DNA of 64,000 nucleotides, from the NCBI GenBank assembly GCA_964016885.1, contig OZ024742.1, positions 326,616,001 to 326,680,000 on the forward strand. The letters are read 5' to 3'. Under the pieces are notes generated by a model. The model was not told the DNA's origin. It was given only the letters and a program-made list of their open reading frames with translations, and ran no database searches. The position numbers and the translations under genes were made by a program. Position 1 is the first letter of the stretch. Every line of letters starts with the position of its first letter. Of the stretch, positions 760-62,980 are shown piece by piece. Source of the DNA: Eledone cirrhosa (Eukaryota).

Positions 760-2435
760 ATATATATACACACACATATATATATATATATATATATATA
801 TATATATATAAGTATAATTTATGTGGAAAGTCATGTACAAATATATTTGCGTTTGTTCTCAGGAGATATACAGGTATGTATAAATTGATAGCGAGGTCTA
901 AAGATGAATTTTTTGTGCAGGTATGCGTGTTTGTATGTATATGAATGCGTATTTATAGAGATTTGTATATGAATGTATGTCGATATATATATATATATAT
1001 GTATATATATATATATATATAATATATAAGAACAAAAGATGGTTAAAGGAGTTCCATGTATTTTATTATGCTTTATATATGTATATATATATATGTATAT
1101 ATATGTATATATATTTATGTATGTATATATAGATATATACGTATATGTATATATATATATATATATATATATATATATATATATATATATATATGTATAT
1201 ATACGTGAGTATATATATATATTATAGGAGAGAGGTTAACGATTAAGATCAGTAAGCTCATTCAACTTCGTAATTTATACTTTAAACTATTTTATATGTA
1301 TATGTGTGTCTGTGTGCGTGCGTCAGTGTATGTATATGTGTGTGTGTATCTGTGGGTGTCGGTGTCTGTGTCAGTGTGTGTGTGTGTGTGTGTGTGTCAG
1401 TGTCTGTGTGACAGTGTGTGTGTATGTGTATCTGTGTGTGTCAGTGTCTGTGTCAGTGTGTGTGTATGTGTGCGTCAGTGTGTGTGTATGTGTGTGTGTA
1501 AGTGTATCTGTGTGTGTCAGTGTGTGTGTGTAAGTGTATCTGTGTGTGTCAGTGTGTGTGTATGTGTATGCGAATGGGTGTGTGTGCATGTATGTCACTG
1601 TACATTGTCTCTACATATATTTGTCTGCCTGTGTACGATGTCTGTATGGTTATATTTCAGCTTACCTAAAAAATATCAAAACATTTCTATCTCTACGATA
1701 GTATGTTGTTATCAACTGGAACATGTAAGTGGTAGTATCATTTAAACTTCTTTTCCATGGTATTGATTTTTTGCAATAATCCTATAAATCATTTTGACGT
1801 TGACATTATCTTATCAATGTATTTTAACTATGTTATAAAAAGTGAGGAAATTGGTGCTTTATAAGCATAGAGTTTTCACCTGAGTCCATCACTAGTACGG
1901 TAGGGCTTCCTGCAGGAAATGGTAAAAAAGTGAAAAAAGATATATATATATATAAATATATATATATATATATATGTGTGTGTATATATATGTATGTACG
2001 TATTATATATATATATATATATATATATATATATATATATATATATATATATATATATATATAGAGAGAGAGAGAGAGAGAGAGAGAGAGAAATATACAC
2101 GGGTGTGTATGATTGTGTATAGAAGATTATATTAATAAAAGGAATTCCAACTTTGTCTGATTTACTCGTTTTATATATATATATATGATTTACTCGTATA
2201 TATATATATATATGATTTACTCGTATATATACAGTATATATATAAATATATATATATATATATATATATATATATATATATATATATATATATATATATA
2301 TATATATATATATATATATATATATATATATATATATATATATATATATATATATATATATATATAAAAGACGTAAAATAAGAAAATATTTTTTTTTTTT
2401 AATTTTTAAAAAGTGTTTTACTTACTTAAATTTTC

Positions 2436-2517
2436 ACTCCAACTAATTAGTTTCTGCAATGGGATAAAGACAGTTACGTAATCCAACTGTCGAGAATTCA
2501 TTGCGTCATCAGGGAGT
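2436..2517 (-). ncRNA. Type I hammerhead ribozyme (family A)
   Basis: Reverse complement of 2882-2963. Confidence 0.85.
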
Positions 2518-2881
2518 CTATTCTCAGTTAAGTCTCCAGGCAATGCGCGGACACTGGCGGCTCATATAAAAATAATAATAATTCGGTAGATCGAACAGCT
2601 TGCGAGGACTGGATTCTATGTACCGAAATTCTCACTGCTTCAAGTCAAATGGCCGATTCTAAAGATTCAATCACGTGACACAGAGGCTAGTTAGAAGGAA
2701 TGGGATGGTAAGATGACTGACGCCTACTAACACCCCAAAAAAAAAGTTTTTTTAGAAGTGGTTTTGGCAAGTTTGCTCGACAAATCAGTGTCCTCGCAAG
2801 CTGTTCGATCTACCGAATTATTATTATTTTTATATGAGCCGCCAGTGTCCGCGCATTGCCTGGAGACTTAACTGAGAATAG

Positions 2882-2963
2882 ACTCCCTGATGACGCAATG
2901 AATTCTCGACAGTTGGATTACGTAACTGTCTTTATCCCATTGCAGAAACTAATTAGTTGGAGT
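2882..2963 (+). ncRNA. Type I hammerhead ribozyme (family A)
   Basis: Stem I ACTCC/GGAGT; core CTGATGA; stem II GCAATG/CATTGC with inner hairpin GACAGTT/AACTGTC; GAAA; palindromic stem III ACTAATTAGT; GTT cleavage triplet. Confidence 0.9.
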
Positions 2964-3212
2964 GAAAATTTAAGTAAGTAAAAAATTTTTTAAAAATTTT
3001 TTTAAAAAAATATTTTCTTATTTTACGTCTTTTATATTATTGTTCTGCATTCTCCTGCATTGAACCACCTAGGTACTATGACATAACCTGTGTATTTGCT
3101 AGCATGGGCGTGCATCTGTGCGCTTATGTTAGTTGATATATATATATATATATATATATATATATATATATATATATATATATATATATATATATATATA
3201 TATATATATATA

Positions 3213-3372
3213 TCACGGTACATTAACGGAGCCATAGACTCTCGTCATTCCCTGTAAATAGTGTGCTCAAAGGAGAGGAAATTCTGAGCTCTTTAAAATA
3301 CAATATGTTGAAAAGGTAACACACTAGAGAGTGATACAGCACGCTTGTGTGTCACCTTTTCAACATATTTTA
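3213..3372. mobile_element. Fragment of the ~540 bp HHR element at 16273-16818, spanning its end-to-start junction
   Basis: 3213-3300 matches 16733-16818 and runs straight into sequence matching 16273-16325. It ends in a short fold-back. Confidence 0.75.
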
Positions 3373-60571: not shown

Positions 60572-60634
60572 TATTTTATCTGAGGAAAGCGTACCAATGT
60601 GTTTTGGTACCCTTGAAATATATATAATAAAATA
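60572..60634 (+). ncRNA. Type I hammerhead in the PLE 3' pseudo-LTR
   Basis: Stem I TATTTTAT/ATAAAATA; CTGAGGA; stem II AAG-GTACCAA/TTGGTAC-CTT; GAAA T-ATAT-A TA. A damaged mirror copy lies at 56575-56641. Confidence 0.85.
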
Positions 60635-61519
60635 AATATGGTTTTATAAATATAGTTTCCATTTATTTAATATCATTGAATATTTACTCCAGTAACTTGT
60701 TGAGTGCTCTAAATCAGTTATAAACATTTATATTTGTCGGAATTCCAACAAATTAAATATCCCTTCTACTTATATATATATATATATATATATATATATA
60801 TAAGAGAGAGAGAGAGAGAGAGAGAGAGAGAGAGAGAGAGAGACAGAGAGAGAGAGAGAGAGAGAGAGAGAGAGAGAGAGAGAGAAAGAGAGAGAGATGT
60901 ATATATATATATATGCATGGAAAGAATAGACAAAGATATACCTATTTTTTCTTCGACTGCAATTTCATTGACTGGTCTGCCGCAATTATGCACCAGAAAC
61001 GTGCACCAGTGCTGTGAGGCCTTCCATTCTTCAAGAAAACCCCTCAAGTTAGTAGATTATGCATATGTATGTTTCATCATGTATTGGCGAAGGATGAAAA
61101 AAGGTATTCAAGCAAAAACAATCGAGCTACAGACAATACCTTTCAGTCGTGTAGCAAGAAATTTGTTTGTTACCTGTTGCCAGCGATCTAAATTTGAAAC
61201 CTCTATCGATTTCGAAAATGAATGTTTCAGTTTTTGAACCTTGAAACGGCCTGCTCATGAAAGTAATAGGCGAACAGCTAAGCATTCCACAAACATGTGT
61301 ACCAATGCAATTCTCAAGACGATTCAGCGTGACGCATTGTGGTACAAGGCTGGTCCTTTCCATCACAAGAACAACTCATATTTCCAGTTGAATAGATGGA
61401 ACAACGGAAAAATAAAATGCCTTGCCCAATGATAAAACACATACCTAAGAATCGAATCAGTATCAGGACACACTAACCCCTAAAACAGGTGCCTTTACAC
61501 TAATAGGTATATACATAAA

Positions 61520-62460
61520 TATACTGTGAAGTTACATACTGTTGGTTAATAATGTGCACTTTTAACATATCTCCAATAATCTGTGATATTCGCTATCTTA
61601 ACAATGTCTACATGATTTTTTTTATCAATTTTGTTAAGCAAAGATTTTGTTCATTTTCTCTTTATTATTTTTATTCTTCGGAGATTTTCTTTAAGCAGTT
61701 TTTATTTGGTAGACATAGGTTTTGTATTTCTCTTAGAAACCTTTTTTTCAATCTGAGTTCTGAAGTCAGTATTTGTGTTCTCGCCAATATGTTTTATTCT
61801 AGAATTGTATGGAAGGTGTACATATCATGCAAGACGTTTTCTCTTTTTCTCGTTAGTATGATTCTTACTTTTTACTGTGTAGTATTTTTTTTATTTTTCA
61901 GATAGAATTTCATTTTCTTTTGTATTTCTACTATCAATTTTCTTGAGAAATACTTTTTTAAGTTTTCTCTAGCTATATTTGTATAATCTGTTGTTTGTTT
62001 TTGTTTTTGATTTTTGTTGATGTTTTTTAATGTATTTACTTTTATCAGTCTGCAGAAACAATTTTATAGAAAGTGTAAAATTCGCATTTTCTTTTTATTA
62101 TTTTTTTTTTAGATTCTGATTGTGGTAAATATACTTTGTTTATGACTACGTCTAATGATGTGTTCCTAATGTCATCATAAATTGATTATAATATTTTTAG
62201 ACTCGAATAGTCCTAAGTCCTGAATGAAAATAATATCTCCTCATATAATAATGTCCTAATGTGTTAATGTCTGTAATTTTCTTCCTAACATATAATTCTG
62301 TTATGAGGTATGAGACAATCCTTCTTTTGTATATTAACTATTCCTATATTATTTGTCATCACATATAGAATTGATGTAGCCTGTATTGTTCGTTTAATCT
62401 TCAATATCTGTCGATTAATCTTATTCTTTTGTTCCAGTGTATTAATTTAAACACTAATTA
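61520..62460 (-). pseudogene. Possible highly degraded PLE coding remnant
   Basis: A-rich minus strand with scattered LDVV, VHLPY and CRHC-like motifs, heavily interrupted. Confidence 0.3.
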
Positions 62461-62828
62461 TGTATTCATACCCACCACCATTTTCAGGGGCGGGGGGGGG
62501 GGGTATCTCCCTCTAGGCAGCGAATTTGTAGAGTCATTAGAACGTCAGATAGAATGCTTTGTGGCATTCGTTTCGGATCTCTACGCTCTTGGTTTAAATC
62601 CCGCCGAGTTCAACTTTACTCTTCATCCTTTCGAGGTCGATAAAATACTAATAGTTGGGTACTAGAATCGAGATTTCCTCTACATCGCTCTCTCTCTCTC
62701 TCTATCTATCTATCTATCTATCTCTATCTCTCTCTCTCTCTCTATATATATATATATATATATATATATATATATATATATATATATATAGAGAGAGAGA
62801 GAGAGAGAGAGAGAGAGAGAGAGAGAGA

Positions 62829-62980
62829 TGTTTAACCTCGACGGCAGAACTCAAGCCGTTTCGACTGCTTGAGCTCTGCCGTCGGGGTTAAACATTTTCC
62901 TATTACCTACTCTACTACTCTAAGTATTGAGTACTCTGGTGCGTTATGGTCCATCTGGTTCCTTACCACACTTCCTTCGT
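62829..62980 (+). mobile_element. Family F copy
   Basis: Fold-back around ..GCCGTC GGGGT plus the shared body. Confidence 0.7.

Follow-up and report, generated by a model that had tools for sequence, protein, structure and literature searches.

The stretch of DNA considered here, 64,000 nucleotides (nt) of the Eledone cirrhosa genome (contig OZ024742.1, positions 326,616,001 to 326,680,000; hereafter the window, numbered from its first letter), raises the question of why so many hammerhead ribozyme motifs, in sequence-unrelated families, should lie between its (TA)n microsatellites, and of what copies them. Our answer, to which we give a probability of roughly 0.7, is that the window holds the 3' ends of coding Penelope-like elements (PLEs) together with retrozymes, non-coding repeats with hammerheads, that were copied into (TA)n by a reverse transcriptase of the Hydra clade of PLEs, starting at two hairpin-marked sites. 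The original prediction of a radiation of non-autonomous, PLE-mobilised RNAs is supported for families A/A', B, K, E, M and N, and probably J, and not for nine of the 35 motifs, which are pseudo-long terminal repeats (pLTRs) of coding PLEs.

Hammerhead motifs in the window

Motifs were sought with a stem-aware type I descriptor, which scores stems I-III and accepts cores with C3-G8 or U3-A8 at a cut-off score of at least 8, and 830 dinucleotide shuffles of the window served as control. The type I core CUGANGA / GAAA / NUH with stems I-III was satisfied by 26 matches, against a shuffle mean of 0.77 (maximum 5). Two of these, at 57241 (57241-57332) and 59729, lie inside an AT-rich 11-bp tandem and were discarded, which leaves 24 strong hammerheads; 11 degenerate ones (11778, 14036, 16519, 19411, 20117, 32369, 32536, 36115, 36837, 39666 and 42063) were added by lower score, homology or folding, giving a total of about 35. 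The roughly 25 intact or degenerate motifs claimed previously are thus borne out. The string CTGATGA occurs 29 times in the window compared with 8.8 in shuffles.

Rfam gave no window hits at the gathering score, and the hammerhead family was absent among the 150 matches listed of 269 E-value hits; it was also silent on six further loci, which include textbook-like arrays and two Hydra leaders. A search with Infernal models or with a descriptor allowing long stem II had been proposed as a check, and the descriptor count lies far above the shuffles. A stricter descriptor yielded 3 hits only, because it lacked both unpaired stem II bases and the U3-A8 core. The latter occurs in families K and L and is a published hammerhead variant (PMC4209133).

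Stem II reaches 108 nt in the window, its long inserts being mostly hairpin-forming on folding, and palindromic stem III is also real. In family A, the only family in which covariation was tested, seven stem II pairs change on both sides among nine related copies, which none of 500 shuffles matches, although the structure was drawn from the same sequences. A (TA)5 run lies at most 350 nt downstream in 25 of 32 curated motifs. The type I motifs of the window are considered real, and self-cleavage is predicted from their sequence.

Several other candidates were rejected. Seven of the 29 CTGATGA matches come from a degenerate minisatellite (27526-28100), whose unit holds the string in a small inverted repeat; GAAA is absent in register, and this minisatellite at 27.5-28.1 kb is not a hammerhead. 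Position 19337 belongs to a 33-bp tandem, 42615 and 50745 to other repeats, and 3871 and 6076 to fragments of long interspersed nuclear elements (LINEs), while the score at 63337 falls inside the shuffle range.

Non-coding tandem retrozymes

The 35 motifs divide into 14 in retrozymes, 2 in probable retrozymes, 9 in coding-PLE ends and 10 in neither class. Six families (A/A', B, K, E, M and N; 14 motifs, monomers of 439-607 nt) are non-coding tandem retrozymes. More than ten non-coding families had been claimed; six are found and one more is probable, whereas four or more belong to the ends of coding elements. Families A, B, K and M consist of tandem units with one type I hammerhead each, as arrays or pairs. 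The arrays of A, B and K run head-to-tail, those of A for up to about 12 units, and the monomer junctions of E and N were seen on fewer loci than those of A, B, K and M. Monomer lengths are 563 nt for A, 531 for A', 439 for B, 591-594 for K, 482-517 for M, about 590-607 for E and 541 for N. The periods of 439, 563 and 594 measured earlier recur genome-wide (the last as 591-594), and the fourth, of ~540, fits family N. The monomers had been thought longer than reported retrozymes. They exceed the 170-400 nt of one account (PMC7229834), but 439-607 nt lies inside the 51-972 bp of another, where retrozymes are described as non-autonomous PLE derivatives (bioRxiv 2026.07.22.740005).

In the window, family A is present as two head-to-head arms between (TA)n (2366-3135; hammerheads 2512 on the minus and 2887 on the plus strand, with a 51-nt stem II and a GUU site), and as a tandem minus arm (21088, 21651) with an inverted plus arm (22268) at 20834-22417. 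Subfamily A', which has a 531-nt period and is ~75% like A, occupies 34417-35360 (34549 minus, 35112 plus). Family K also has head-to-head arms (12024-13134), with U3-A8 hammerheads at 12180 (minus) and 12818 (plus) and ends at +77 and +239 from the cleavage site. Family B is present as 1.5 copies (18918-19571, plus; hammerheads 18972 and, degenerate, 19411), family E at 4341-4860 (minus; hammerhead 4699, with the 108-nt stem II) and family M as a fragment (36754-36997, plus; degenerate hammerhead 36837). Family N has a unit-length monomer between (TA)n at 16275-16816 (minus; degenerate hammerhead 16519 with a long stem III) and a fragment across the monomer junction at 3214-3369 (minus). Family J, probably a non-coding retrozyme, lies at 17343-17937 (plus), where ~190 nt free of open reading frames (ORFs) precede the hammerhead at 17553, and has a relative at 27060 (minus).

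It is very improbable that every family is a truncated pLTR of a coding PLE and that no true retrozymes exist here. That explanation does hold for families C, D, I and the 46853 type, and could do so for F, G, H and L. It is refuted for A, B, K and M by their tandem non-coding units, and the arrays or tandem pairs of A, B, K, M and N311 (a 311-nt retrozyme from outside the window) have one hammerhead per unit and ORFs of at most 137 codons; E and N show monomer junctions. N311 forms head-to-head arrays that are identical (L056:8600-9713, L066:6135-7907), and its hammerhead is short and canonical. PLE-protein hits were found at none of 15 loci for K, one of 12 for A and three of 15 for B, compared with 10 of 15 for the Hydra2 end. 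Across five monomers the longest ATG frame is 27-137 codons and the circular folding z-score -4.1 to -11.9, and GC content is 0.34-0.42, under the limit of 45-50% that goes with non-LTR retrozymes. An LTR-type layout was not seen in the retrozyme arrays examined.

A second explanation is that the tandem families are satellites, derived from single pLTRs and amplified as DNA by unequal crossover with no RNA step of their own. Such a route has been proposed (bioRxiv 2026.07.22.740005), and units inside one array can indeed be near-identical. However, A, B and K are dispersed (1,101, 3,025 and 1,288 first-look candidate loci respectively, which are not copy numbers), their two opposite arms end at fixed sites in (TA)n as those of coding elements do, and in the window self-comparison the monomers do not align to Hydra pLTRs yet hold the start-site motif described below at the right spacing. 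We regard a satellite origin as improbable.

The K monomers are 98-100% identical. None of the sequencing runs listed for this monomer was an RNA run. The monomer also closes on itself in contigs of four runs for which no library type is given, X2 and X5 each having it as one contig of ~620 nt; nothing is concluded from this, as tandem DNA would fit as well as a circle. X2 and X5 carry the labels of two other organisms and the closed K contig is of low depth, so relatives, contamination or transfer would all fit.

Coding PLEs and their pLTR ends

Nine window motifs are pLTR ends of coding PLEs of Hydra, Nematis-like and Neptune-like types. Candidate helper elements are present as predicted, and the likely helper is the Hydra clade. 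Hydra1 has many intact 808-codon frames of ~98% identity, with RWK, DKT, a CxCx5C linker and CxxC + CxH in a C-terminal endonuclease, and CCHH is absent. Hydra2, a decayed second family, has RWR and DKT. The published marks of the Hydra protein are RWK/DKT/CxCx5C and no CCHH (PMC8557442). By these protein motifs both would belong to the Hydra clade, and both insert into (TA)n with a hammerhead in the pLTR. The relatives found for them are cnidarian hypothetical proteins or unnamed ones, and Pfam did not recognise the Hydra ORFs.

The Hydra1 copy is truncated and has an inverted pLTR (39338-42217, minus; ORF 40162-41517; hammerheads 39666 minus and 42063 plus), and a pLTR fragment 82% like Hydra1 lies at 14006-14365 (plus; hammerhead 14036). 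In both this young, intact family and its sister, core position 4 is C rather than U and stem II is 81 nt long (39666, 42063, 14036). The Hydra2 copy has an inverted 3' copy and a decayed ORF (56535-60770, plus; ORF 57481-59353; hammerheads 56633 minus and 60580 plus).

The 5'-truncated element at 24176-26774 (minus) has a decayed ORF (25626-26774) whose motifs make it a putative Neptune-like PLE, the split between Nematis and Neptune types being likewise provisional, and the minimal hammerhead at 24293 is probably in its pLTR. Family I (35424-35787; hammerhead 35612, minus) is a pLTR fragment of a coding Nematis/Neptune-like PLE and has no start-site motif; its hammerhead lies 225-360 nt downstream of a PLE frame that encodes a zinc-finger linker and CCHH. 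Both of these were seen in the frames of its parent at locus L211, and a Cx2-5CxxC linker and CCHH, with a C-terminal GIY-YIG, are the marks sought in Nematis/Neptune proteins. The fragment at 46832-46944 (plus; minimal hammerhead 46853) is a Neptune-like pLTR, and this type of hammerhead follows a Neptune-like frame in one locus.

Insertion ends and a putative start-site hairpin

In retrozymes and coding PLEs alike, an insertion consists of two arms head to head, both of which stop at (TA)n. Their ends lie at two preferred distances past the cleavage site, namely +58 (12 of 21) and +229 (8 of 21) for Hydra1, +49-52 (24 of 45) and +144 (21 of 45) for Hydra2, +80 (8 of 21) and +198 (10 of 21) for family A, and +77 and +239-248 (5 of 10 each) for family K; those of family B are more scattered. 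At seven of eight ends checked, 3-6 alternating T/A open the element's own continuation, where the background rate of three or more is 5-10%; this points to priming through short homology.

A shared motif, N-Y-U-C-[hairpin]-U-N-G-A-R-N, begins 7-11 nt past all eight ends of Hydra1, Hydra2, A and K, the families that defined it. The hairpin spans 7-70 nt and is followed by a 2-nt bulge (UU, UC or UA) and by G-A-R-N, which closes the stem. A 9-mer at the motif is common to A, K and Hydra1, which are otherwise unalignable. Proximal and distal copies lie at 21865-21888 and 21982-22006 in family A (both plus), and at 12981-13041 (plus, with a 51-nt insert) and 12555-12571 (plus) in family K. Others lie at 39433-39501 in Hydra1, 60686-60705 in Hydra2, 14202-14270 in the Hydra1-like fragment, 16784-16808 in the N monomer and 17362-17379 in J. 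Its carriers thus far are two autonomous Hydra families together with the retrozymes A, K, B (one end), E, N and J.

Among 26 testable hammerhead clusters, 17 had the motif 6-13 nt past the proximal end where 1.4 were expected, three of the 17 being defining families. The outermost pair, which the search did not demand, was formed in 14 of the 17. The end of M was not mappable owing to an internal microsatellite; that of E was mis-set in the automatic test, and its motif was read separately.

A wider test used 79 Hydra loci from marine metagenome contigs, from which 49 near-full-length loci were chosen and 42 distinct leaders with enough sequence were scored. One copy of the motif was found in 32 of the 42 5' leaders (4.2 expected) and two in 22 (0.3 expected), nearly all as GCUC/GAGC. 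The copies were 57-75 nt apart in 21 of the 22, and a (TA)n junction lay 6-11 nt before the motif in five of six mappable cases. The motif is thus clade-wide in Hydra, at a spacing that matches the tail. It was absent from Nematis-like ends (0 of 11 and 0 of 4 copies) and Neptune-like ends (0 of 2). The Penelope tail, which has been reported as 30-40 nt, is likely to be the distance between two start-site motifs, about 60-75 nt in the Hydra elements of other animals and 85-170 nt here.

By the same motif, Hydra-clade elements are the likely helpers of retrozymes A, B, K, E and N, and probably of J. Hydra proteins might also mobilise these elements while the twin motif acts as DNA, as an endonuclease site, cruciform or promoter, rather than as an RNA start signal. 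Tail DNA of the D. virilis Penelope is reported to be needed for endonuclease recognition (PMC11167929), and the distal copy in the metagenome leaders sits ~35-50 nt ahead of the ORF, a plausible position for a promoter or a signal for translation. Yet the insert ranges in length from 9 to 68 nt and folds as an extended hairpin, with the 2-nt bulge on one side; at each 3' end the motif falls immediately beyond the inserted DNA, where it would be best placed on the template; and ORF-less retrozymes keep both copies. A DNA role appears unlikely, if less so than a satellite origin.

A candidate mechanism

We give somewhat better than an even chance to a mechanism in which the twin bulged RNA hairpin loads a dimer of the Hydra protein and sets both starts of reverse transcription, which would explain the tail and the head-to-head insertions, and in which dozens of unrelated circular retrozyme RNAs mimic the hairpin, leading to one of the highest hammerhead loads of any genome (about 380,000). 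Read-through transcripts of tandem copies would self-cleave, probably as dimers through palindromic stem III, and the monomers would probably be ligated into circles. The Hydra dimer would bind the two hairpins, nick both (TA)n strands and prime just upstream of each motif, aided by 3-6 nt of UA microhomology. Copying round the circle or along an uncleaved multimer could give the arrays, and the two primers the opposite arms.

As the start sites lie 50-240 nt from the cleavage site, a cleaved linear monomer cannot template the longer arms, and either a circle or an uncleaved multimer is needed. The second option, a linear multimer that forms no circles and whose hammerheads are passengers or work at a later stage, is the less probable of the two but a real contender. 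Poseidon, a PLE of Anolis, uses unprocessed RNA in vitro (PMC11167929), and 5' junctions do not cluster at the cleavage site (4 of 151 lie no more than 3 nt away, against 5.3 expected, with one reference placed 8 nt off), a result which fits circles and uncleaved multimers equally. Non-canonical cores, namely U4C in Hydra1 and the GUU site in family A, also suit this option. Against it, dozens of unrelated families conserve both cores and stems, with compensatory changes, and retrozymes of coral, mussel and axolotl do give circles (PMC7229834). Copies of N and J, these two families only, are of unit length and begin just before a motif, as a circle would produce, and we lean towards circles on this basis.

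Several observations weigh against the proposed copying by Hydra, including the junction counts and atypical cores just given. Poseidon can insert in vitro without its hammerhead and primes without homology (PMC11167929), and only one of nine Xenopus retrozyme dimers cleaved in vitro (bioRxiv 2026.07.22.740005). Nine of the 26 clusters are motif-negative by rule, M-like, H and L among them, although two (E and one more) look like mis-mapped ends. The distal end of B lacks the motif, as do the mapped ends of M and N311, two families that may use another helper. Counts of the inner pairs are not independent covariation, since the search pattern demands those pairs.

Hammerhead load across the genome

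The wider load was estimated from 99 evenly placed 10-kb blocks (989,400 bases of the 3.0-Gb genome), which gave 133 descriptor hits compared with 7.9 in shuffles. The net density of 126 motifs per Mb (bootstrap 93-161) extrapolates to about 380,000 motifs (280,000-480,000) in the genome. At least one motif was present in 58 of the 99 blocks, and merging neighbouring motifs leaves about 100 insertions per Mb. The window, at about 375 per Mb, has about three times the genome average and is no special locus for hammerheads.

Features seen in the window recur in the sample. A (TA)6 run lay within 300 nt of 105 of the 133 motifs, compared with 36% of random positions. Stem III was a perfect palindrome in 73 of the 133 and stem II exceeded 40 nt in 26, in agreement with the palindromic stem III and long branched stem II reported at the outset. 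About 48 of the 133 were in families tied to coding elements or sister subfamilies, 26 in known retrozymes and 59 in neither; Hydra protein hits occurred in 12 of the 99 blocks.

Published counts reach 120,000 hammerheads in axolotl (28 Gb), more than 6,000 in coral and about 5,000 in mussel (PMC7229834) and about 9,000 in Xenopus tropicalis, and for giant squid the figure is 235 Rfam hits; as the descriptors differ, their comparison with ~380,000 is only rough. The word ribozyme is never used in the available text of a recent repeat annotation of Octopus vulgaris. The count here shows that a very large ribozyme class is missed by standard models.

Comparison with known retrozymes and PLEs

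The families resemble metazoan non-LTR retrozymes (Cervera and de la Pena 2020, PMC7229834; Li et al. 2026, bioRxiv 2026.07.22.740005) in being non-coding, low-GC tandems with one type I hammerhead per unit, in co-occurring with PLEs, whose role in mobilisation has been proposed, and in a length within the published range. They differ in that the helper clade is assigned through a shared cis motif rather than through co-occurrence or pLTR homology, in their (TA)n-targeted head-to-head arrays, and in the many hammerheads with a stem II of 26-125 nt. No cephalopod is mentioned in the extracts of these two accounts.

Like the published Hydra clade (Craig et al. 2021, PMC8557442), one of whose families is Hydra-1_Obim of Octopus bimaculoides, the elements here combine RWK/DKT/CxCx5C and no CCHH with a (TA)n target and a hammerhead close to the 3' end; in many of these hammerheads, unpaired bases flank stem II on either side and the site is GUU/GUA. 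Unlike it, they are very abundant and diverse, with tails of 85-170 rather than 30-40 nt; the extracts of that paper describe neither a twin hairpin nor non-autonomous partners for the clade. The long stem II also contrasts with the 10-25 nt found in 65 hammerheads of the metagenomic Hydra loci.

In Anolis Poseidon (Frangieh et al. 2024, PMC11167929), two internal starts of reverse transcription downstream of the hammerhead make the tail, as proposed here, and both target strands are nicked and extended. Poseidon starts in one AC-rich stem-loop with no target homology, whereas each start here has its own hairpin and 3-6 nt of UA microhomology. MRC1-type elements of Chlamys (Craig et al. 2021) are likewise non-autonomous PLE partners with head-to-tail multicopy insertions, but they have 3' sequence in common with their helper and mostly lack hammerheads, while the families here share a small structural motif only.

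Hammerheads in PLE ends (PMC4209133) and circular retrozyme RNAs (PMC7229834) are already published, and long monomers and the general retrozyme-PLE link are in print; prior literature on the subject also includes PMC13282606, PMC6962438 and PMC3846280. The ecosystem itself was largely to be expected from these sources, and what goes beyond them is above all the shared start-site hairpin, besides the scale and the forms with a long stem II. The literature searched contained no account of the twin hairpin, none of retrozymes specific to Hydra and none of hammerhead loads in cephalopods, a result on which unread supplements and subscription papers may bear.

How PLEs choose their start sites and what mobilises animal retrozymes are stated open questions in the published extracts. 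With a 20-80-nt motif at a fixed distance from both ends, common to helper and passengers, a single purified protein would be enough to test both, and the young intact Hydra1 copies and the near-identical K monomers are ready reagents. If the motif suffices for copying, it would be a minimal tag by which cargo is recognised by a reverse transcriptase that targets microsatellites.

Other elements and repeats of the window

The remaining hammerheads lie mostly in fragments. Family F (19612-19848, plus; hammerhead 19642, 61-nt stem II) carries the start-site motif, family G (16893-17138, minus; hammerhead 17003) has it in longer copies, and family H (13422-13790, minus; hammerhead 13554) has a relative at 47035 (plus). 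No clear tandem partner was seen for these three among the best 40 matches of each, and extension of their loci revealed neither ORF nor tandem junction, in F over ~700 nt or more upstream. Family L is a palindrome (51780-52069; U3-A8 hammerheads 51885 minus and 51964 plus) in which no start-site motif was found. Two short fragments at 32244-32598 (minus) hold a hammerhead at 32369 with a motif at 32285-32303, and a degenerate Hydra2-type hammerhead at 32536.

Microsatellites, (TA)n among them, are abundant in the window. A host gene sampled elsewhere in the genome has mostly molluscan sequences in its nearest clusters, and the repeat landscape appears octopus-like. A hammerhead-free dispersed repeat of ~600 nt, 94-97% identical between copies (174-759, 7450-8061, 8095-8702, 10169-10577 and 37130-37737), adjoins (ACAT)n or (TA)n runs and is likely to derive from a short interspersed nuclear element or a LINE. 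A short family with a near-perfect GC-rich junction palindrome ends at (TA)n (17959-18134, 20288-20481, 31971-32066 and 62829-62979); its layout is that of PLE ends and no hammerhead was seen in it. PLE-like ends that are bounded by (TA)n but show no hammerhead also lie at 14670-15632 and 18225-18443, with a start-site hairpin at 18341-18364. At 43157-44402, inverted repeats of 389 nt (99% identical) surround a common 185-nt repeat in 2.6 tandem copies; this shell resembles either a miniature inverted-repeat transposable element or a PLE and has captured another repeat. Finally, a 224-codon open frame at 45856-46530 with a cysteine-rich end like that of epidermal growth factor is likely to be a host exon, and the repeats may be intronic in the same gene.

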